Part shown: in pieces, positions 41,927 through 52,327 of the stretch
How positions within the stretch are numbered: position 1 is the stretch's first letter
Layout: the number at the start of each line of letters is the position of its first letter
Assembly: GCF_003334815.1 (NCBI RefSeq)
Contig: NZ_QOWO01000006.1
Source: Escherichia coli
GTDB taxonomy: Bacteria > Pseudomonadota > Gammaproteobacteria > Enterobacterales > Enterobacteriaceae
Direction: 5' to 3' (one strand)
DNA length: 64,000 nt
Notes under the pieces: model-generated
What the model was told of the DNA's origin: nothing
What the model saw: only the letters and a program-made list of their open reading frames with translations
The model's database searches: none
Position numbers and translations under genes: made by a program

Positions 41927-42027
41927 TGCCGGATGCGGCGTGAACGCCTTATCCGGCCTACAAAACTTTGCAAATTCAATATATTGCAATCTCCGTGTAG
42001 GCCTGATAAGCGTAGCGCATCAGGCAA
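41927..42027. repeat. REP/BIME palindromic element cluster
   Basis: Near-identical to the 11761-11870 element, including the conserved internal CAAATTCAATATATTGCA motif. Confidence 0.85.
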
Positions 42028-42085
42028 TTTTTCGTTTATGATCATCAAGGCTTCCTTCGGGAAGCCTTTCTACGTTATCGCGCCA

Positions 42086-43280
42086 TCAAATCTGTCGTAA
42101 CTGCGCCTCAACATACAAATAGCCAATTCCCAGCACCTGTTGTGCGCGGCTTAATTGCCCAAAGCCAATTTGCGTCGCTTTCACGCTCGGTCCTTCGTCG
42201 CGGTCGAACGGGTTAAATCCTGTCTGGCGAATAATAGTATTAAGCCAGTTCTCACCAAAGGCACAACTGCGACCGTACAACCAAATCTGATTAATATTGA
42301 GGATGTTGAGGAAGTTATACAGACTCAAACCAATGGCATTGGCAGAGCGATCAACCCAGCTGGTGATCCACGGTTCTCCACTTTGCCAGGCAGCGATTAA
42401 CTGCGCTGTAGTCAGTTTTTCAGGATCAAGTTGAGTACTAACCGGTTGTGATTTTAGCCATACCCGCGCCTGTTTTTTTAATGCGCTTAACGAGGCGACG
42501 GTTTCCAGGCAGCCATAACGTCCACAGTCGCAGACGACGCCATCCGGATTAACGATGGTGTGACCAATCTGTCCGCTACCATACAAACTGCCGCGATAAA
42601 TTTGCTCGTTAATCACGAACGACGAGCCAATGCCGTAATCAACGTTGATCACGCAGAAATCCCGTTCCTGCGAATTATTTTGCCATTTCTCCGCCAGCGC
42701 CAGCATCACGCAGTCATTATCGACCATCACCCGAATGCCGAGCTTCTCTTCCAGCAGATATTTCACCTCCACCGGCGTTGTCCACGGCGCTTGCGGCATG
42801 GTTTGCGACACGCCGGTCACAGGATCAACCTGACCGTGGATTGCCAACGCCAGGTTGATGGTATGGTCCGGCCACAATTTACGGTGGCGATGCCAGCATT
42901 TTTTCGATTTCGGACAGCAGCGCCTGCGGCGTCGGTGCATCAATCTGTAAATACTCAAATTCACCTTTCGGACTTAAACAAGCATTAGCAACCTGACACT
43001 CAATACTGGTGGGCGTCACGTTCAGGCACAGCGTCCAGTCACCTTCCGGCGCAATCAGCCATGTACCGCTACTATGCCCGCGCGTCTGGCTTTCATCGTC
43101 AATATTCACCACCCGTTTTTCGCTTTCCAGTTCCTGCAAAATATTACTGACTGCCGGAATCGAAATTTGCGCCAGCCGGGCCAGCGTTGATTTATTGGCG
43201 CGCTTTTGCCGGTACAGCAGTTCCAGAATCACGCATTTGTTATGGTGGCGAATCTGTTGATTATTAATGCAGGCTCTCAT
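42086..43280 (-). pseudogene. yphH: ROK-family (NagC-like) regulator YphH, disrupted by +1 frameshift in a T6/A6 run
   Basis: Two overlapping minus-strand ORFs in different frames (42879..43286 N-terminal HTH part; 42086..42964 C-terminal part with CDCGRYGC zinc motif); they join in-frame if one T of the run at 42899-42904 is removed. Confidence 0.7.
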
Positions 43281-43397
43281 CTTCACTAAACCTTGTTTAG
43301 TTAATTGCGTGATTATTCCGCGAAAACATTGCCAGATTGTTCAATACACTGCCACAAATCTTTTAATTCAGTATGTCTTGTTAATATTGAGGGCACC

Positions 43398-46300
43398 ATG
43401 ACTCCAGTAAAAGTGTGGCAAGAGCGCGTTGAGATCCCGACCTATGAAACCGGGCCGCAGGATATACATCCCATGTTCCTGGAAAATCGCGTTTATCAGG
43501 GATCGTCCGGCGCGGTTTATCCCTACGGCGTGACCGATACGCTGAGCGAGCAGAAAACCCTGAAATCCTGGCAGGCGGTGTGGCTGGAAAACGACTACAT
43601 CAAAGTGATGATCCTGCCGGAACTGGGCGGTCGGGTGCATCGCGCGTGGGATAAAGTGAAACAGCGCGATTTTGTTTATCACAATGAAGTCATTAAACCT
43701 GCGCTGGTGGGGCTGCTGGGGCCGTGGATTTCCGGTGGGATTGAGTTTAACTGGCCGCAACATCATCGCCCGACCACCTTTATGCCCGTTGATTTCACCC
43801 TCGAAGCCCATGAAGACGGTGCACAGACGGTGTGGGTAGGCGAAACGGAGCCGATGCATGGTTTACAGGTGATGACAGGTTTCACCCTGCGCCCTGACCG
43901 GGCGGCGCTGGAAATCGCCAGCCGCGTCTATAACGGGAACGCCACGCCGCGTCATTTCTTGTGGTGGGCCAACCCGGCAGTGAAAGGGGGGGAAGGGCAT
44001 CAGAGCGTCTTCCCGCCGGATGTAACGGCGGTGTTTGATCACGGCAAACGGGCCGTCTCCGCTTTCCCCATCGCTACCGGCACTTACTACAAAGTGGACT
44101 ACTCCGCTGGAGTGGACATTTCTCGCTATAAAAATGTGCCTGTTCCAACCTCATATATGGCCGAAAAATCGCAGTACGATTTTGTCGGCGCGTGGTGTCA
44201 CGATGAAGATGGCGGTTTGCTGCACGTTGCCAACCACCATATTGCGCCAGGTAAAAAACAGTGGAGTTGGGGACACAGTGAATTTGGCCAGGCGTGGGAT
44301 AAGAGTCTGACCGACAATAACGGCCCGTATATCGAACTGATGACCGGTATTTTTGCCGATAACCAGCCCGATTTTACCTGGCTTGATGCTTACGAAGAGA
44401 AGCGTTTTGAGCAGTATTTCCTGCCTTATCATTCTTTGGGCATGGTGCAAAATGCCTCCCGCGATGCGGTGATAAAACTCCAGCGTAGTAAGCGGGGGAT
44501 TGAGTGGGGGCTGTATGCCATCTCTCCGTTGAACGGATACCGCCTGGCGATCCGCGAAATCGGTAAATGCAACGCGTTACTTGATGATGCCGTGGCACTG
44601 ATGCCTGCGACCGCCATCCAGGGCGTGTTGCACGGTATCAATCCTGAAAGGCTGACCATTGAGCTCTCCGATGCCGACGGCAATATTGTACTGAGTTATC
44701 AGGAACATCAGCCGCAAGCGTTGCCGTTACCGGACGTCGCCAAAGCGCCACTGGCAGCACAAGACATTACCAGTACAGATGAAGCCTGGTTTATCGGTCA
44801 GCATCTGGAGCAATATCATCACGCCAGCCGTTCACCGTTCGATTACTACCTGCGCGGCGTGGCGCTGGACCCGCTGGATTATCGCTGTAACCTGGCGCTG
44901 GCGATGCTGGAATATAACCGCGCAGATTTCCCGCAAGCGGTGGCGTATGCCACTCAGGCTCTGAAACGCGCACATTCGCTGAACAAAAATCCGCAGTGCG
45001 GACAGGCGAGTTTGATTCGCGCCAGTGCTTACGAACGTCAGGGACAATATCAACAAGCCGAAGAGGATTTCTGGCGTGCGGTCTGGAGCGGCAACAGCAA
45101 AGCCGGTGGCTATTATGGCCTGGCACGACTGGCGGCGCGTAATGGTAACTTCGACGCTGGTCTGGATTTTTGCCAACAAAGTCTTCGCGCCTGCCCAACC
45201 AATCAGGAAGTGCTTTGCCTGCATAATCTGCTGCTGGTGTTAAGTGGTCGTCAGGACAACGCGCGTGTGCAGCGCGAGAAACTGCTGCGCGATTATCCGC
45301 TGAACGCCACTCTGTGGTGGCTGAACTGGTTCGATGGTCGTAGCGAATCAGCTCTCGCGCAGTGGCGCGGTCTGTGTCAGGGACGCGACGTTAACGCCCT
45401 GATGACCGCCGGGCAACTGATTAACTGGGGAATGCCCACCCTGGCGGCAGAGATGCTGAACGCACTGGACTGCCAGCGCACGCTGCCGCTTTACCTGCAA
45501 GCCAGCTTGCTGCCGAAAGCCGAACGTGGCGAACTGGTCGCAAAAGCCATTGATGTCTTCCCGCAGTTTGTCCGTTTCCCGAATACGCTGGAAGAAGTGG
45601 CGGCGCTGGAGAGTATTGAAGAGTGCTGGTTTGCTCGCCATTTACTAGCTTGCTTCTACTACAACAAACGTAGCTACAACAAAGCCATTGCCTTTTGGCA
45701 ACGTTGCGTAGAGATGTCGCCGGAGTTTGCCGACGGCTGGCGCGGGTTAGCGATCCATGCGTGGAATAAGCAACACGATTATGAGCTGGCCGCGCGTTAT
45801 CTTGATAATGCTTATCAGCTTGCGCCGCAGGATGCACGTCTGCTTTTCGAACGGGATTTGCTGGATAAGTTAAGTGGAGCCACACCGGAGAAACGACTGG
45901 CGCGTCTGGAAAATAATCTGGAAATTGCGCTGAAACGCGACGACATGACCGCAGAACTGCTCAATTTGTGGCATCTCACGGGTCAGGCAGACAAAGCGGC
46001 GGACATTCTCGCCACGCGCAAATTCCACCCGTGGGAAGGCGGGGAAGGGAAGGTCACCAGTCAGTTTATCCTCAACCAGTTATTACGCGCCTGGCAGCAT
46101 CTTGATGCCAGACAGCCGCAGCAGGCCTGCGAACTGCTTCATGCCGCGCTGCATTATCCGGAGAATTTAAGCGAAGGCCGTTTACCGGGGCAAACTGATA
46201 ACGACATCTGGTTCTGGCAGGCGATATGCGCCAACGCGCAGGGCGATGAAACTGAAGCGACGCGTTGTTTACGTCTGGCGGCGACCGGCGATCGCACTAT

Positions 46301-46679
46301 TAACATTCACAGTTATTACAACGATCAGCCGGTTGATTATCTCTTCTGGCAAGGGATGGCGCTGCGACTGCTGGGCGAACAACAAACCGCACAGCAACTG
46401 TTTAGTGAAATGAAACAGTGGGCGCAAGAGATGGCGAAAACCAGTATCGAAGCGGATTTCTTTGCCGTCTCGCAACCTGACTTGTTGTCGCTGTATGGCG
46501 ATTTACAACAGCAGCATAAAGAAAAATGCCTGATGGTGGCGATGCTGGCGTCCGCGGGACTCGGGGAGGTTGCGCAATATGAGTCTGCTCGCGCTGAATT
46601 GACGGCGATTAATCCGGCTTGGCCGAAAGCGGCATTATTCACCACCGTGATGCCTTTTATTTTTAACCGCGTTCACTAA
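43398..46679 (+). CDS. yphG: large uncharacterised protein with C-terminal TPR-like repeats
   Basis: Track ORF 43305..46679; ATG 43398 after GAGGG gives about 1093 aa MTPVKVWQERVEIPTYETGPQDIH...; no signal peptide; helical repeat composition in the C-terminal half. Confidence 0.85.
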   Translation: MTPVKVWQERVEIPTYETGPQDIHPMFLENRVYQGSSGAVYPYGVTDTLSEQKTLKSWQAVWLENDYIKVMILPELGGRVHRAWDKVKQRDFVYHNEVIKPALVGLLGPWISGGIEFNWPQHHRPTTFMPVDFTLEAHEDGAQTVWVGETEPMHGLQVMTGFTLRPDRAALEIASRVYNGNATPRHFLWWANPAVKGGEGHQSVFPPDVTAVFDHGKRAVSAFPIATGTYYKVDYSAGVDISRYKNVPVPTSYMAEKSQYDFVGAWCHDEDGGLLHVANHHIAPGKKQWSWGHSEFGQAWDKSLTDNNGPYIELMTGIFADNQPDFTWLDAYEEKRFEQYFLPYHSLGMVQNASRDAVIKLQRSKRGIEWGLYAISPLNGYRLAIREIGKCNALLDDAVALMPATAIQGVLHGINPERLTIELSDADGNIVLSYQEHQPQALPLPDVAKAPLAAQDITSTDEAWFIGQHLEQYHHASRSPFDYYLRGVALDPLDYRCNLALAMLEYNRADFPQAVAYATQALKRAHSLNKNPQCGQASLIRASAYERQGQYQQAEEDFWRAVWSGNSKAGGYYGLARLAARNGNFDAGLDFCQQSLRACPTNQEVLCLHNLLLVLSGRQDNARVQREKLLRDYPLNATLWWLNWFDGRSESALAQWRGLCQGRDVNALMTAGQLINWGMPTLAAEMLNALDCQRTLPLYLQASLLPKAERGELVAKAIDVFPQFVRFPNTLEEVAALESIEECWFARHLLACFYYNKRSYNKAIAFWQRCVEMSPEFADGWRGLAIHAWNKQHDYELAARYLDNAYQLAPQDARLLFERDLLDKLSGATPEKRLARLENNLEIALKRDDMTAELLNLWHLTGQADKAADILATRKFHPWEGGEGKVTSQFILNQLLRAWQHLDARQPQQACELLHAALHYPENLSEGRLPGQTDNDIWFWQAICANAQGDETEATRCLRLAATGDRTINIHSYYNDQPVDYLFWQGMALRLLGEQQTAQQLFSEMKQWAQEMAKTSIEADFFAVSQPDLLSLYGDLQQQHKEKCLMVAMLASAGLGEVAQYESARAELTAINPAWPKAALFTTVMPFIFNRVH

Positions 46680-46775
46680 ACCCTATTAACTGTAATATTT
46701 GAGCGGCACGCGCTGCCGCTCATCACAAAATAATTAGAATAAGCCGTTGTTAATAAAAACCCTACAGGAGGCTCT

Positions 46776-47759
46776 ATGCCTACAAAAATGAGAACAACCC
46801 GTAATCTATTATTAATGGCTACGCTATTAGGTAGCGCACTATTTGCCAGGGCTGCGGAAAAAGAAATGACCATTGGCGCAATATACCTTGATACTCAGGG
46901 ATACTACGCTGGAGTGCGTCAGGGCGTTCAGGATGCGGCAAAAGATTCCTCAGTACAAGTTCAGTTAATAGAAACTAACGCCCAGGGTGATATTTCGAAA
47001 GAAAGTACCTTTGTTGATACCCTCGTGGCGCGTAATGTCGATGCCATTATTTTATCGGCAGTGTCTGAAAATGGCAGTAGCCGTACCGTTCGTCGCGCCA
47101 GTGAAGCGGGCATTCCGGTGATTTGCTACAACACCTGTATTAATCAAAAGGGGGTCGATAAATATGTCTCGGCGTATCTGGTCGGCGATCCGCTGGAATT
47201 TGGTAAAAAACTGGGTAACGCTGCCGCTGATTATTTTATTGCCAATAAAATTGACCAGCCGAAAATTGCCGTCATCAATTGCGAAGCCTTTGAAGTTTGT
47301 GTGCAGCGACGTAAAGGATTTGAAGAAGTTTTAAAATCCCGCGTTCCCGGCGCGCAAATTGTCGCTAATCAGGAAGGGACTGTTTTAGATAAAGCGATTT
47401 CCGTTGGTGAAAAACTAATTATCTCCACGCCGGATCTCAACGCCATTATGGGGGAATCGGGCGGTGCGACACTCGGCGCGGTAAAAGCGGTACGTAATCA
47501 AAATCAGGCCGGAAAAATTGCTGTTTTCGGTTCGGATATGACAACCGAAATTGCTCAGGAGCTGGAAAACAATCAGGTGCTGAAAGCGGTAGTGGATATT
47601 TCCGGTAAGAAAATGGGCAATGCTGTTTTCGCGCAAACATTGAAGGTTATCAATAAACAAGCCGACGGTGAAAAAGTGATTCAGGTGCCTATCGATCTCT
47701 ATACCAAAACGGAAGACGGTAAACAGTGGCTGGCAACGCACGTTGATGGTCTGCCCTAA
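46776..47759 (+). CDS. yphF: periplasmic sugar-binding protein of ABC transporter
   Basis: 327-aa ORF with signal peptide MPTKMRTTRNLLLMATLLGSALFARA; type-I periplasmic binding fold composition. Confidence 0.9.
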   Translation: MPTKMRTTRNLLLMATLLGSALFARAAEKEMTIGAIYLDTQGYYAGVRQGVQDAAKDSSVQVQLIETNAQGDISKESTFVDTLVARNVDAIILSAVSENGSSRTVRRASEAGIPVICYNTCINQKGVDKYVSAYLVGDPLEFGKKLGNAAADYFIANKIDQPKIAVINCEAFEVCVQRRKGFEEVLKSRVPGAQIVANQEGTVLDKAISVGEKLIISTPDLNAIMGESGGATLGAVKAVRNQNQAGKIAVFGSDMTTEIAQELENNQVLKAVVDISGKKMGNAVFAQTLKVINKQADGEKVIQVPIDLYTKTEDGKQWLATHVDGLP

Positions 47760-47781
47760 TCGCTGATTCGCAGAGGTCCCT

Positions 47782-49293
47782 ATGTTCACGGCAACAGAGG
47801 CAGTCCCGGTAGCAAAAGTGGTGGCAGGAAATAAGCGTTATCCCGGCGTCGTTGCGCTGGATAACGTTAACTTCACGCTCAATAAAGGCGAAGTTCGTGC
47901 GCTGTTAGGTAAAAACGGCGCGGGCAAATCGACTCTCATTCGAATGCTTACCGGCAGCGAACGCCCGGATAGCGGTGATATCTGGATTGGCGAGACGCGA
48001 CTGGAAGGTGACGAAGCTACGCTGACTCGCCGTGCCGCTGAACTGGGGGTGCGCGCGGTTTATCAGGAGTTAAGTCTGGTGGAAGGGCTGACAGTGGCGG
48101 AAAACCTCTGCCTCGGTCAGTGGCCCCGCCGCAACGGCATGATTGATTACCTGCAAATGGCGCAGGATGCCCAACGTTGCTTACAGGCGCTGGGCGTTGA
48201 CGTTAGTCCTGAACAACTTGTTTCAACGCTAAGCCCGGCGCAAAAGCAGCTGGTGGAAATTGCGCGGGTGATGAAGGGCGAGCCGCGCGTGGTCATTCTT
48301 GATGAACCTACCAGTTCGCTTGCGAGTGCGGAAGTTGAACTGGTGATCAGCGCGGTGAAAAAGATGTCGGCACTGGGCGTGGCGGTGATTTATGTCAGCC
48401 ACCGGATGGAAGAAATTCGCCGCATTGCCTCCTGTGCCACCGTTATGCGCGATGGTCAGGTGGCGGGCGATGTGATGCTCGAAAACACCTCCACGCATCA
48501 TATTGTGTCGCTGATGCTCGGGCGCGATCACGTTGATATTGCGCCGGTAGCCCCTCAGGAAATTGTGGATCAGGCCGTGCTGGAAGTCCGTGCGTTACGC
48601 CATAAGCCCAAGCTGGAGGATATCAGTTTTACGCTACGTCGTGGCGAAGTGCTCGGCATTGCTGGTCTGCTGGGGGCAGGGCGCAGTGAATTGCTGAAGG
48701 CGATTGTTGGGCTGGAGGAGTATGAACAGGGCGAAATTGTTATCAACGGCGAGAAAATCACGCGCCCCGATTACGGCGACATGCTGAAACGCGGCATTGG
48801 CTATACGCCAGAAAACCGCAAAGAAGCGGGGATCATTCCCTGGTTGGGCGTTGACGAAAATACAGTGCTGACCAATCGGCAAAAAATCAGCGCCAACGGT
48901 GTGCTGCAATGGTCCACCATCCGCCGCCTGACCGAAGAGGTGATGCAGCGGATGACGGTCAAGGCCGCCAGTAGCGAAACACCCATCGGCACGCTTTCTG
49001 GTGGCAATCAGCAAAAAGTGGTGATCGGTCGTTGGGTCTATGCTGCCAGCCAGATTTTGTTGCTCGACGAGCCAACGCGCGGCGTCGATATCGAAGCCAA
49101 ACAGCAGATTTACCGTATTGTCCGTGAGCTGGCTGCCGAAGGAAAAAGCGTGGTGTTTATCTCCAGTGAAGTGGAGGAGTTGCCGCTGGTGTGTGACCGC
49201 ATCCTGTTATTACAGCACGGCACGTTCTCGCAGGAGTTTCACGCTCCGGTCAATGTGGATGAGCTGATGTCCGCCATTCTGTCTGTGCACTGA
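47782..49293 (+). CDS. yphE: sugar ABC transporter ATP-binding protein (duplicated ABC domain)
   Basis: 503-aa ORF with Walker A GKNGAGKST, ABC signature LSGGNQQK and second Walker B LLLDEPTRGVD. Confidence 0.92.
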   Translation: MFTATEAVPVAKVVAGNKRYPGVVALDNVNFTLNKGEVRALLGKNGAGKSTLIRMLTGSERPDSGDIWIGETRLEGDEATLTRRAAELGVRAVYQELSLVEGLTVAENLCLGQWPRRNGMIDYLQMAQDAQRCLQALGVDVSPEQLVSTLSPAQKQLVEIARVMKGEPRVVILDEPTSSLASAEVELVISAVKKMSALGVAVIYVSHRMEEIRRIASCATVMRDGQVAGDVMLENTSTHHIVSLMLGRDHVDIAPVAPQEIVDQAVLEVRALRHKPKLEDISFTLRRGEVLGIAGLLGAGRSELLKAIVGLEEYEQGEIVINGEKITRPDYGDMLKRGIGYTPENRKEAGIIPWLGVDENTVLTNRQKISANGVLQWSTIRRLTEEVMQRMTVKAASSETPIGTLSGGNQQKVVIGRWVYAASQILLLDEPTRGVDIEAKQQIYRIVRELAAEGKSVVFISSEVEELPLVCDRILLLQHGTFSQEFHAPVNVDELMSAILSVH

Positions 49294-49317
49294 TGAATTT
49301 TACCGAGGAACCTGAAG

Positions 49318-50316
49318 ATGTCTGCTTCGTCATTACCATTGCCGCAGGGCAAGAGCGTCTCGCTCAAACAATTTGTCAGTCGCCATATTAATGAGATCGG
49401 TTTGCTGGTGGTGATTGCCATTCTTTATCTGGTCTTCTCCCTGAACGCGCCTGGCTTTATCTCATTGAATAACCAGATGAACGTGCTGCGCGATGCCGCC
49501 ACCATTGGGATTGCCGCCTGGGCGATGACGCTGATTATTATCTCCGGTGAAATTGATGTCAGCGTTGGGCCGATGGTGGCTTTTGTCTCGGTGTGCCTGG
49601 CATTTTTGCTGCAATTTGAAGTTCCGCTGGCGGTGGCGTGCCTGCTGGTGTTGCTGTTAGGCGCGCTGATGGGAACGCTGGCCGGGGTGCTGCGCGGCGT
49701 GTTTAATGTACCAAGTTTCGTTGCCACACTGGGGCTGTGGAGCGCCCTGCGCGGAATGGGGCTGTTTATGACGAACGCACTGCCAGTGCCGATTGATGAA
49801 AACGAGGTGCTGGACTGGCTGGGCGGACAATTTCTCGGTGTGCCGGTATCCGCGCTGATCATGATTGTGTTGTTTGCGCTGTTTGTGTTCATCAGCCGCA
49901 AAACCGCCTTCGGGCGCTCGGTTTTTGCCGTTGGCGGTAATGCTACGGCGGCGCAGTTGTGCGGCATCAACGTTCGTCGGGTGCGCATTCTTATCTTTAC
50001 CCTTTCGGGATTATTAGCGGCGGTGACCGGCATTTTGTTGGCGGCGCGCCTCGGTTCTGGTAACGCAGGTGCCGCAAACGGTCTGGAGTTTGACGTCATC
50101 GCCGCGGTCGTGGTCGGCGGTACGGCACTTTCCGGCGGTCGCGGTTCCCTGTTCGGTACATTGCTTGGTGTGCTGGTGATTACGCTAATCGGTAACGGTC
50201 TGGTGCTGCTCGGTATTAACTCCTTTTTCCAGCAGGTGGTACGCGGCGTCATCATCGTGGTGGCGGTGCTGGCGAATATCTTGCTGACCCAGCGAAGCAG
50301 TAAAGCGAAACGCTAA
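49318..50316 (+). CDS. yphD: sugar ABC transporter permease
   Basis: 332-aa hydrophobic ORF; RbsC/CUT2-like permease composition. Confidence 0.9.
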   Translation: MSASSLPLPQGKSVSLKQFVSRHINEIGLLVVIAILYLVFSLNAPGFISLNNQMNVLRDAATIGIAAWAMTLIIISGEIDVSVGPMVAFVSVCLAFLLQFEVPLAVACLLVLLLGALMGTLAGVLRGVFNVPSFVATLGLWSALRGMGLFMTNALPVPIDENEVLDWLGGQFLGVPVSALIMIVLFALFVFISRKTAFGRSVFAVGGNATAAQLCGINVRRVRILIFTLSGLLAAVTGILLAARLGSGNAGAANGLEFDVIAAVVVGGTALSGGRGSLFGTLLGVLVITLIGNGLVLLGINSFFQQVVRGVIIVVAVLANILLTQRSSKAKR

Positions 50317-50381
50317 ACCTTAACGCCCCTGGCGCGGGTGCGGCAGGGATGAAAATTAATCGTATTGTTAATGAGGGATTT

Positions 50382-51443
50382 ATGAAAACGATGCTGGCAG
50401 CTTATTTACCAGGAAATTCGACCGTCGATCTGCGGGAAGTTGCGGTGCCGACGCCGGGGATTAACCAGGTACTGATCAAAATGAAATCCTCCGGGATTTG
50501 CGGAAGCGATGTCCACTATATCTATCATCAACACCGTGCCACAGCGGCGGCACCCGATAAACCGTTATACCAGGGCTTTATCAACGGTCATGAACCGTGC
50601 GGGCAGATTGTGGCGATGGGGCAAGGCTGCCGCCATTTTAAAGAGGGCGACCGCGTGCTGGTGTATCACATTTCTGGCTGTGGTTTTTGCCCGAACTGCC
50701 GTCGCGGTTTTCCTATTTCTTGTACTGGCGAAGGAAAAGCGGCTTACGGCTGGCAGCGTGACGGCGGTCATGCCGAATACTTGCTGGCGGAAGAAAAAGA
50801 TCTGATCCTCCTGCCGGATGCGCTGAGCTACGAAGATGGTGCGTTTATCAGTTGCGGCGTTGGTACAGCGTATGAAGGAATTTTGCGCGGCGAAGTTTCC
50901 GGCAGTGATAACGTGCTGGTGGTCGGTCTGGGGCCAGTCGGCATGATGGCGATGATGCTGGCGAAAGGTCGCGGTGCAAAACGGATCATCGGCGTTGATA
51001 TGCTGCCGGAACGTCTGGCGATGGCAAAACAGTTAGGGGTGATGGATCACGGCTATTTAGCAACCACCGAAGGTCTGCCGCAGATTATCGCCGAACTCAC
51101 CCACGGTGGCGCGGATGTTGCGCTCGATTGTTCCGGTAATGCCGCAGGTCGCTTGCTGGCACTGCAATCCACCGCTGACTGGGGACGGGTGGTTTACATT
51201 GGTGAAACCGGAAAAGTGGAATTCGAGGTCAGCGCCGATCTGATGCACCATCAACGGCGGATTATCGGCTCCTGGGTGACCAGTCTGTTCCATATGGAAA
51301 AATGCGCCCATGATCTGACGGACTGGAAGCTGTGGCCGCGTAACGCCATTACCCATCGCTTCTCGCTGGAACAGGCAGGTGATGCCTATGCGCTGATGGC
51401 GAGCGGCAAATGCGGGAAAGTTGTGATTAACTTCCCGGATTAA
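50382..51443 (+). CDS. yphC: zinc-dependent medium-chain alcohol/polyol dehydrogenase
   Basis: Track ORF 50349..51443 trimmed to ATG 50382 after GAGGG (353 aa); GHEPCG and GxGxxG Rossmann motifs. Confidence 0.88.
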   Translation: MKTMLAAYLPGNSTVDLREVAVPTPGINQVLIKMKSSGICGSDVHYIYHQHRATAAAPDKPLYQGFINGHEPCGQIVAMGQGCRHFKEGDRVLVYHISGCGFCPNCRRGFPISCTGEGKAAYGWQRDGGHAEYLLAEEKDLILLPDALSYEDGAFISCGVGTAYEGILRGEVSGSDNVLVVGLGPVGMMAMMLAKGRGAKRIIGVDMLPERLAMAKQLGVMDHGYLATTEGLPQIIAELTHGGADVALDCSGNAAGRLLALQSTADWGRVVYIGETGKVEFEVSADLMHHQRRIIGSWVTSLFHMEKCAHDLTDWKLWPRNAITHRFSLEQAGDAYALMASGKCGKVVINFPD

Positions 51444-51454
51444 GGAGTTAGCGG

Positions 51455-52327
51455 ATGACCATCTATACCTTATCCCACGGGTCGCTAAAGCTGGACGTTT
51501 CTGACCAGGGCGGCGTAATCGAAGGCTTCTGGCGCGATACGACGCCGCTCTTACGTCCTGGTAAAAAAAGCGGTGTGGCAACCGATGCCTCATGTTTTCC
51601 GCTGGTGCCATTTGCAAACCGGGTGAGCGGCAATCGTTTTGTCTGGCAGGGGCGTGAGTATCAACTGCAACCGAATGTTGAGTGGGATGCGCACTATCTA
51701 CACGGCGATGGCTGGCTGGGCGAGTGGCAATGTGTCTCGCACAGCGATGATAGTTTGTGTCTGGTGTATGAACATCGCAGCGGTGTCTATCACTATCGGG
51801 TAAGTCAGGCGTTTCATTTAACGGCGGATACGCTGACGGTGACGCTCTCTGTCACCAATCAAGGGGCAGAGACGCTGCCATTTGGTACCGGCTGGCATCC
51901 TTATTTTCCGTTGTCGCCGCAAACGCGGATTCAGGCACAGGCGAGCGGTTACTGGCTGGAGCGGGAGCAGTGGCTGGCGGGTGAGTTTTGCGAGCAGCTA
52001 CCGCAGGAACTGGATTTTAACCAGCCCGCGCCGTTGCCGCGCCAGTGGGTGAACAATGGTTTTGCCGGATGGAATGGTCAGGCCCGCATCGAGCAGCCGC
52101 AGGAAGGTTATGCCATCATCATGGAAACGATGCCACCTGCACCGTGTTATTTCATCTTTGTTTCCGACCCTGCGTTTGATAAAGGATATGCGTTTGATTT
52201 CTTCTGTCTGGAACCGATGAGCCATGCGCCGGATGATCATCATCGCCCGGAAGGGGGTGATCTCATTGCGCTAGCACCAGGGGAATCAACAACTTCAGAG
52301 ATGTCGTTGCGGGTAGAGTGGCTGTAA
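51455..52327 (+). CDS. yphB: aldose 1-epimerase-family protein
   Basis: 290-aa ORF MTIYTLSHGSLKLDVSDQGGVIEGFWRD...; mutarotase-like. Confidence 0.88.
   Translation: MTIYTLSHGSLKLDVSDQGGVIEGFWRDTTPLLRPGKKSGVATDASCFPLVPFANRVSGNRFVWQGREYQLQPNVEWDAHYLHGDGWLGEWQCVSHSDDSLCLVYEHRSGVYHYRVSQAFHLTADTLTVTLSVTNQGAETLPFGTGWHPYFPLSPQTRIQAQASGYWLEREQWLAGEFCEQLPQELDFNQPAPLPRQWVNNGFAGWNGQARIEQPQEGYAIIMETMPPAPCYFIFVSDPAFDKGYAFDFFCLEPMSHAPDDHHRPEGGDLIALAPGESTTSEMSLRVEWL

Follow-up and report, generated by a model that had tools for sequence, protein, structure and literature searches.

Is the yphH gene of this Escherichia coli isolate truly broken, and does the break act as a switch? The window, i.e., the whole 64-kb stretch of DNA analysed here, corresponds to positions 1-64000 of the draft contig QOWO01000006.1 (198,223 bp) in the assembly GCA_003334815.1. 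This contig was reached through an exact protein look-up of the unusual 405-aa HcaD; its numbering is that of the window, and the identity over 42894-64000 is 100%. On its minus strand, the ORF list gives an ORF at 42879..43286, which encodes 135 aa from a GTG codon or 133 aa from the ATG codon at 43280. A second minus-strand ORF lies in another frame at 42086..42964 and encodes 292 aa from the GTG at 42964 or 284 aa from the ATG at 42940. The two ORFs overlap at 42879-42964, and the window has no single intact frame that joins the helix-turn-helix (HTH) part to the ROK part. An earlier note, made from the sequence alone, had read the pair as one ROK/NagC-like regulator gene split by a surplus base in a T/A run. 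All of its positions hold when the ORFs are listed again and the minus strand is re-read.

One surplus base splits the yphH gene

The run at 42899-42904 reads TTTTTT on the plus strand (T6), and the coding strand reads GAA AAA ATG there. In the intact gene, the coding-strand run has five residues (A5, or T5 on the plus strand), and the codons are GAA AAA TGC for E126, K127, and C128. In the window, the yphH frame is lost after Lys127, and a stop codon comes six codons on. Thus, the N-terminal ORF ends with ...PQALLSEIEKMLASPP-stop, i.e., ...SEIEK-MLASPP followed by TAA. The window was compared with the intact alleles (1194 nt) of strain 300709 (L002) and LAU-OXA (L004). Against each of them, the one extra base is the sole difference across 1281 bp, which confirms the surplus base in the T/A run as the cause of the split. 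When the extra A was removed in silico, the 397-aa protein WP_001200769.1 was obtained, containing ...PQALLSEIEKCWHRHRKLWPDH... and reading ...EIEK-CWHRHRKLWPDH... at the junction. Both the repaired frame and a length of approximately 397-399 aa had been predicted correctly by the earlier note. What is real here is a frameshift relative to the species-wide yphH allele.

The yphH pseudogene, from the ATG to the original stop codon, occupies 42086..43280 on the minus strand (boundaries mapped from the PGAP frameshifted feature of strain 52F4). It holds the mutated homopolymer at 42899..42904 (six As on the coding strand, against five in the intact alleles compared), the truncated N-terminal ORF at 42879..43280, and the out-of-frame C-terminal ORF at 42086..42940, all on the minus strand. 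Products identical to the 133-aa protein of the N-terminal ORF have been deposited as CAM9110414.1 and STM37666.1, and a product identical to the 284-aa protein of the C-terminal ORF as CAM9110337.1. The C-terminal ORF covers nearly the whole ROK domain, and gene callers assign PF00480 to it. Since it is preceded by no obvious Shine-Dalgarno sequence, however, this ORF is probably not translated. The 64-kb window contains 40 runs of six identical bases, 12 runs of seven, and one run of eight, i.e., 53 runs of six or more bases. Therefore, the six-base tract of yphH is unremarkable.

Real mutation or sequencing error

The isolate might truly have A5, the extra base being a homopolymer miscall. 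On several platforms, homopolymer indels are the typical error, and four public T6 assemblies (L006-L009) are full of homopolymer errors. These are long contigs with shredded gene calls, L008 having 32 indels in 20 kb, and T6 in L006-L009 may be an error. Error-prone contigs of the yph locus were inspected as a control. They have 3-8 indels per 10 kb, so that a frameshift caused by error arrives here with several neighbouring indels. In contrast, the window is clean. The complete genome of LAU-OXA, which is 99.95% identical, served as the close relative for this check. Over the 64 kb, approximately 20 substitutions were found, of which a repeat element at the far end accounts for a cluster of five. 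Only two indels were found, one being the extra T of yphH and the other a 10-bp change in an hcaD repeat, and no further homopolymer indel exists between LAU-OXA and the whole 64-kb window.

Moreover, T6 was found in four other records with zero other indels over 4.7-20 kb and with all neighbouring genes intact: GCA_037967625.1 (L005) and the Logan contigs of SRR23081622 (L010, together with nine similar places), SRR3951465 (L011), and SRR25057213 (L012). With strain 52F4 included, at least five independent assemblies carry T6 and are otherwise free of indels.

What does a read error look like at this locus? A 153-aa YphH fragment (...LLSKSKNAG...) is encoded by many Logan contigs and results from a 1-nt deletion at 42913 (GTCCGA to GTCGA). 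This deletion always occurs with a G7 to G6 change in yphG (43992) and with other, variable homopolymer deletions, and the contigs that carry it (L024-L033) represent haplotypes differing by up to 1.3%. Because the same deletions recur together on divergent haplotypes, the 153-aa YphH is ascribed to a systematic read error, and the deletions at window positions 42913 and 43992 look like systematic basecalling errors. Such spurious 153-aa 'YphH' proteins are found in at least 57 contigs in protein collections. Two other origins of the 153-aa protein, an independent lineage-specific pseudogene and slippage of the run to A4, were ruled out by DNA comparison; the deletion lies at 42913, and the true A4 protein is different.

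Since the T6 contigs lack this read-error signature, there is little reason, judging from the assemblies compared, to doubt that the T6 allele is real. The earlier note had kept sequencing error as a caveat. With T6 present in independent indel-free assemblies and no other homopolymer indel in the window, the caveat loses most of its force, and a miscall in a true A5 isolate is improbable.

The A6 allele is rare in E. coli

How common is the allele? The 1281-bp locus was searched by megablast against 5426 complete E. coli genomes. The yphH gene ('ROK family protein') was matched in all of them; among the matches listed, a single record, with 100% identity, covers 1281 bases, and the others cover 1280. 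A 74-mer centred on the run with A6 is found exactly in 1 of the 5426 genomes (approximately 2e-4), while the A5 73-mer has a match of at least 99% in at least 5159 of them, including K-12 derivatives, O157:H7, and ATCC 25922. The earlier note would have been refuted by reference genomes in which six Ts go with an intact protein; the references carry five, so that the note stands on this point. A5 is also present in the yphH genes of E. albertii and E. marmotae, and the yphH homologues of E. coli and these two species are single-frame 397-aa proteins. Given its presence in these two species, A5 is by this comparison the ancestral and conserved state of the run.

The sole complete genome with A6 is that of strain 52F4, from a calf in Switzerland (NZ_CM147848.1). 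Its yphH gene (AC0BNW_RS23960) is the same allele as that of the window, with 100% identity over 1281 bp including A6, and is annotated by RefSeq/PGAP as a pseudogene, 'ROK family protein, frameshifted'. Thus, the A6 yphH pseudogene is already known. The two are different isolates; over 46.4 kb, 52F4 and the window are separated by 11 SNPs, one of which is the linked SNP at 51570 (see below), and by a 10-bp change in the hcaD repeat.

Exact look-ups were also performed in a collection of approximately 15 billion proteins. For the 133-aa fragment, the cluster table lists 12 contigs, and 20 carrier contigs were read; for the 284-aa fragment, the numbers are 12 and 16. In summary, the A6 products occur in approximately 16-20 contigs, the true A4 product in approximately eight, at least one of which is clean (L034), and wild-type YphH in at least 1000. 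The product of an A7 yphH is absent from this collection by exact look-up. A4 and A6 at such low levels are what slippage in a short run normally produces.

Did T6 arise once? The clean T6 carriers are all on one haplotype, with at least 99.95% identity. It was attempted to place them in one clade, using a G/A SNP at 51570 in yphB, 8.7 kb from the run. The A allele of this SNP extends an A7 run to A8 and is found in 13 complete genomes. The attempt failed; all four gametes were found. T6 occurs with G at 51570 in the window and GCA_037967625.1 and with A in 52F4 and SRR23081622, while T5 occurs with A in Z1323PEC0012 and 11 other complete genomes and with G in LAU-OXA. Therefore, either T6 or the SNP is recurrent, or recombination has shuffled them. 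With T6 beside both alleles of the SNP and A4 alleles on record, the A5 run might be a mild hot spot of recurrent mutation, the loss of YphH being repeatedly selected in some niches such as the livestock gut because it would turn on the uncharacterised yphGFEDCB sugar system constitutively, but this is quite improbable. If it were true, T6 would be a low-rate, selection-driven on/off polymorphism rather than a case of neutral decay.

The YphH protein and the loss of its ROK domain

The identification of yphH as the gene of a ROK/NagC-like regulator stands, since an HTH, PF00480, and the zinc motif are all present in the repaired protein. In the Pfam search, the ROK domain (PF00480) was found at residues 116-337 (E=1.8e-32) and a winged HTH at residues 16-54 (MarR PF01047, E=7e-4; HTH_24, E=0.013). 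A regular expression for the ROK zinc motif, GHx(9-11)CxCGxxGCxE, matches residues 239-259, GHTIVNPDGVVCDCGRYGCLE, in the form GHx9CxCGxxGCxE. Residues 9-333 align with residues 12-339 of Mlc (structures 1z6r and 3bp8). On the other hand, the scores of the repaired YphH, 111.6 bits for NagC and 106.5 bits for Mlc, fall far short of the NCBIfam equivalog cut-offs (650 and 530 bits, respectively).

Two ROK repressors of E. coli, Mlc and NagC, have been characterised, and YphH is the third, uncharacterised one, with a long branch and without the conserved GR linker motif (PMC4288165). In 2022, YphH was still among the E. coli transcription factors of unknown function (PMC9308461), and it has no experimentally known target or regulon (PMC4288165, PMC9308461). 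The literature found on YphH and the yph operon goes no further than assigning the protein to its family or listing it among the unknown transcription factors, and no paper defining the function of the operon was found.

The break at residue 127/128 is at the start of the ROK domain, and the ROK domain is split in the window. The winged HTH (43119..43235, minus strand) is kept in the truncated product, while the zinc motif (42503..42565, minus strand) is absent from it. Thus, the 133-aa product would consist of the winged HTH and the linker and would lack almost the entire ROK sensor/oligomerisation domain as well as the structural zinc site. For this reason, a loss of YphH function is very likely, in line with the earlier note's claim of inactivation. 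The truncated YphH should fail as a repressor, and its DNA-binding function would probably be lost as well. As for the origin of the allele, replication slippage on the A5 run (GAA AAA TGC) would have added one A. Seen as a whole, the sequence comparisons suggest that T6 is quite probably a genuine, rare, and heritable loss-of-function allele of yphH that arose by such slippage.

The yphG-yphB operon and the divergent control region

The yphGFEDCB genes lie divergently to yphH at 43398..52327 on the plus strand (annotation of collinear records) and are all intact in the window. They encode a DUF5107/TPR protein, an ABC sugar transporter, a Zn-dependent dehydrogenase, and an aldose epimerase. 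This stretch differs from that of LAU-OXA by one SNP (52131) and no indel. The yphGFEDCB genes are the presumed target of YphH. By analogy with Mlc, NagC, and XylR, the loss of YphH would derepress both the divergent yphGFEDCB genes and the promoter of yphH itself; I infer derepression of yphGFEDCB in the T6 strain from this analogy.

The control region between yphH and yphG (43281..43397, 117 bp) is nearly invariant across Escherichia species. When representatives of three E. coli lineages were aligned with E. albertii and E. marmotae (five sequences), only 3 of 160 columns were variable, two of them intergenic. Over the same five sequences, the coding DNA is divergent while the intergenic region is not. 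A 23-bp palindrome, TTAACTAAAC-AAG-GTTTAGTGAA, adjoins the yphH start codon at 43282..43304; its 10-nt arms are 90% complementary and are separated by a 3-nt spacer. This palindrome is invariant in the five-way alignment and has the same size as the Mlc/NagC operators, and it may be a candidate ROK-type operator. A scan found no consensus sigma-70 promoter in the yphH-yphG region, and Rfam gave no match in or beside yphH.

Other strains have lesions elsewhere in the locus. The yphG gene has an internal stop codon in strain 300709 and a frameshift in SMN013SH2, the yphA gene has an internal stop codon in E6474, and the yphE gene is interrupted by IS421 in Z1323PEC0012. Since yphG, yphE, or yphA is broken in these strains, the yph locus seems often to be dispensable. 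Selection on the locus as a whole may be weak, and the yphH lesion may have no phenotype at all.

Phase variation and recoding

Is the A-run a contingency switch that toggles yphH ON and OFF at a useful rate? The earlier note had offered a phase-variable yphH as one possible reading. It is true that both the +1 (A6) and the -1 (A4) alleles occur in nature. Furthermore, T6 is found on one haplotype with both alleles of the SNP 8.7 kb away, a pattern which fits either recurrence or recombination. However, the known homopolymer contingency tracts are approximately 7-8 nt or longer, while the wild-type tract of yphH has only 5 nt, and even the mutated one has 6. A tract length commonly polymorphic among related strains was not found for the yphH run in the 5426 complete genomes, where the exact A6 sequence occurs once and the A5 sequence prevails. 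A5 is fixed in the sister species E. albertii and E. marmotae, the intact state thus being conserved across the genus, and the yphH run is not special among the 53 runs of six or more bases in the window. This part of the earlier note is not supported, and a contingency switch at yphH is very improbable.

Could the two frames be joined during expression? Full-length YphH would be restored by a +1 slip of the ribosome, with tRNA-Lys on AAA-A, or by slippage of transcription on A6. If the tRNA-Lys in the P site moved by +1 from AAA to the overlapping AAA, the exact wild-type sequence, ...EIEK-CWHRH..., would indeed result. On the other side, every other Escherichia yphH examined is single-frame. 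As none of these homologues uses two frames, the shift in yphH is most probably not a programmed event. In addition, A6 is shorter than the tracts known to give appreciable transcriptional slippage. Thus, such recoding is extremely unlikely, and full-length YphH is expected to be made from the T6 allele in trace amounts at best.

Other features of the window

The hcaD gene (minus strand, ORF 52894..54111) contains a pentanucleotide repeat, (CTGCG)n, at 53597-53621, whose copy number varies between near-identical strains. The window and the records L019-L021 have five copies and an intact HcaD of 405 aa; SMN013SH2, E6474, and Z1323PEC0012 have two copies and an intact HcaD of 400 aa; 52F4 and LAU-OXA have three copies, and PGAP calls their hcaD a frameshifted pseudogene. 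A repeat that toggles the frame in this way resembles a slippage-prone switch more closely than the A-run of yphH does.

A SNP at 25580, private to the window, changes GGGGGTTTT to GGGGGGTTT in the OhsC antitoxin sRNA; the ohsC match spans 25546-25622 in the shoB/ohsC toxin-antitoxin region. Over the whole window, Rfam found only the expected E. coli RNAs (AsrC, rncO, GlmY, OhsC, naRNA4, and ES036).

The short-read contigs L010-L012 and L024-L034 end at 42002/42003, in a repetitive palindromic element between glyA and yphH. The REP-like sequence at approximately 41940-42050, just downstream of yphH, is thus an assembly breakpoint. In the glyA-yphH spacer, 129 bp match window positions 11743-11871 with 88% identity.

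Discussion

The yphH frameshift amounts to an ordinary pseudogene at the level of the strain; a phase-variation switch it is very probably not. As such, it has little importance beyond strain annotation. Nevertheless, YphH is among the last uncharacterised ROK regulators of E. coli, and natural yphH nulls in an otherwise intact yph locus could be used to find the YphH regulon, by comparing a T6 strain with the near-identical T5 strain LAU-OXA. The locus also provides a worked example of how a real homopolymer mutation can be told from an error, namely by the load of neighbouring indels and by independent assemblies.

Compared with the characterised E. coli ROK repressors Mlc and NagC, the repaired YphH has the same N-terminal winged HTH, ROK domain, and CxCGxxGCxE motif, but YphH is a distant paralogue of them and is truncated in the window. 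The homopolymer contingency loci of Campylobacter, Haemophilus, and Neisseria have long tracts that are highly polymorphic within strains. Like these loci, yphH has its frame shifted by a single-base change in the length of a homopolymer inside the coding region. Unlike them, its tract is only 5 nt long in the wild type and is essentially monomorphic.
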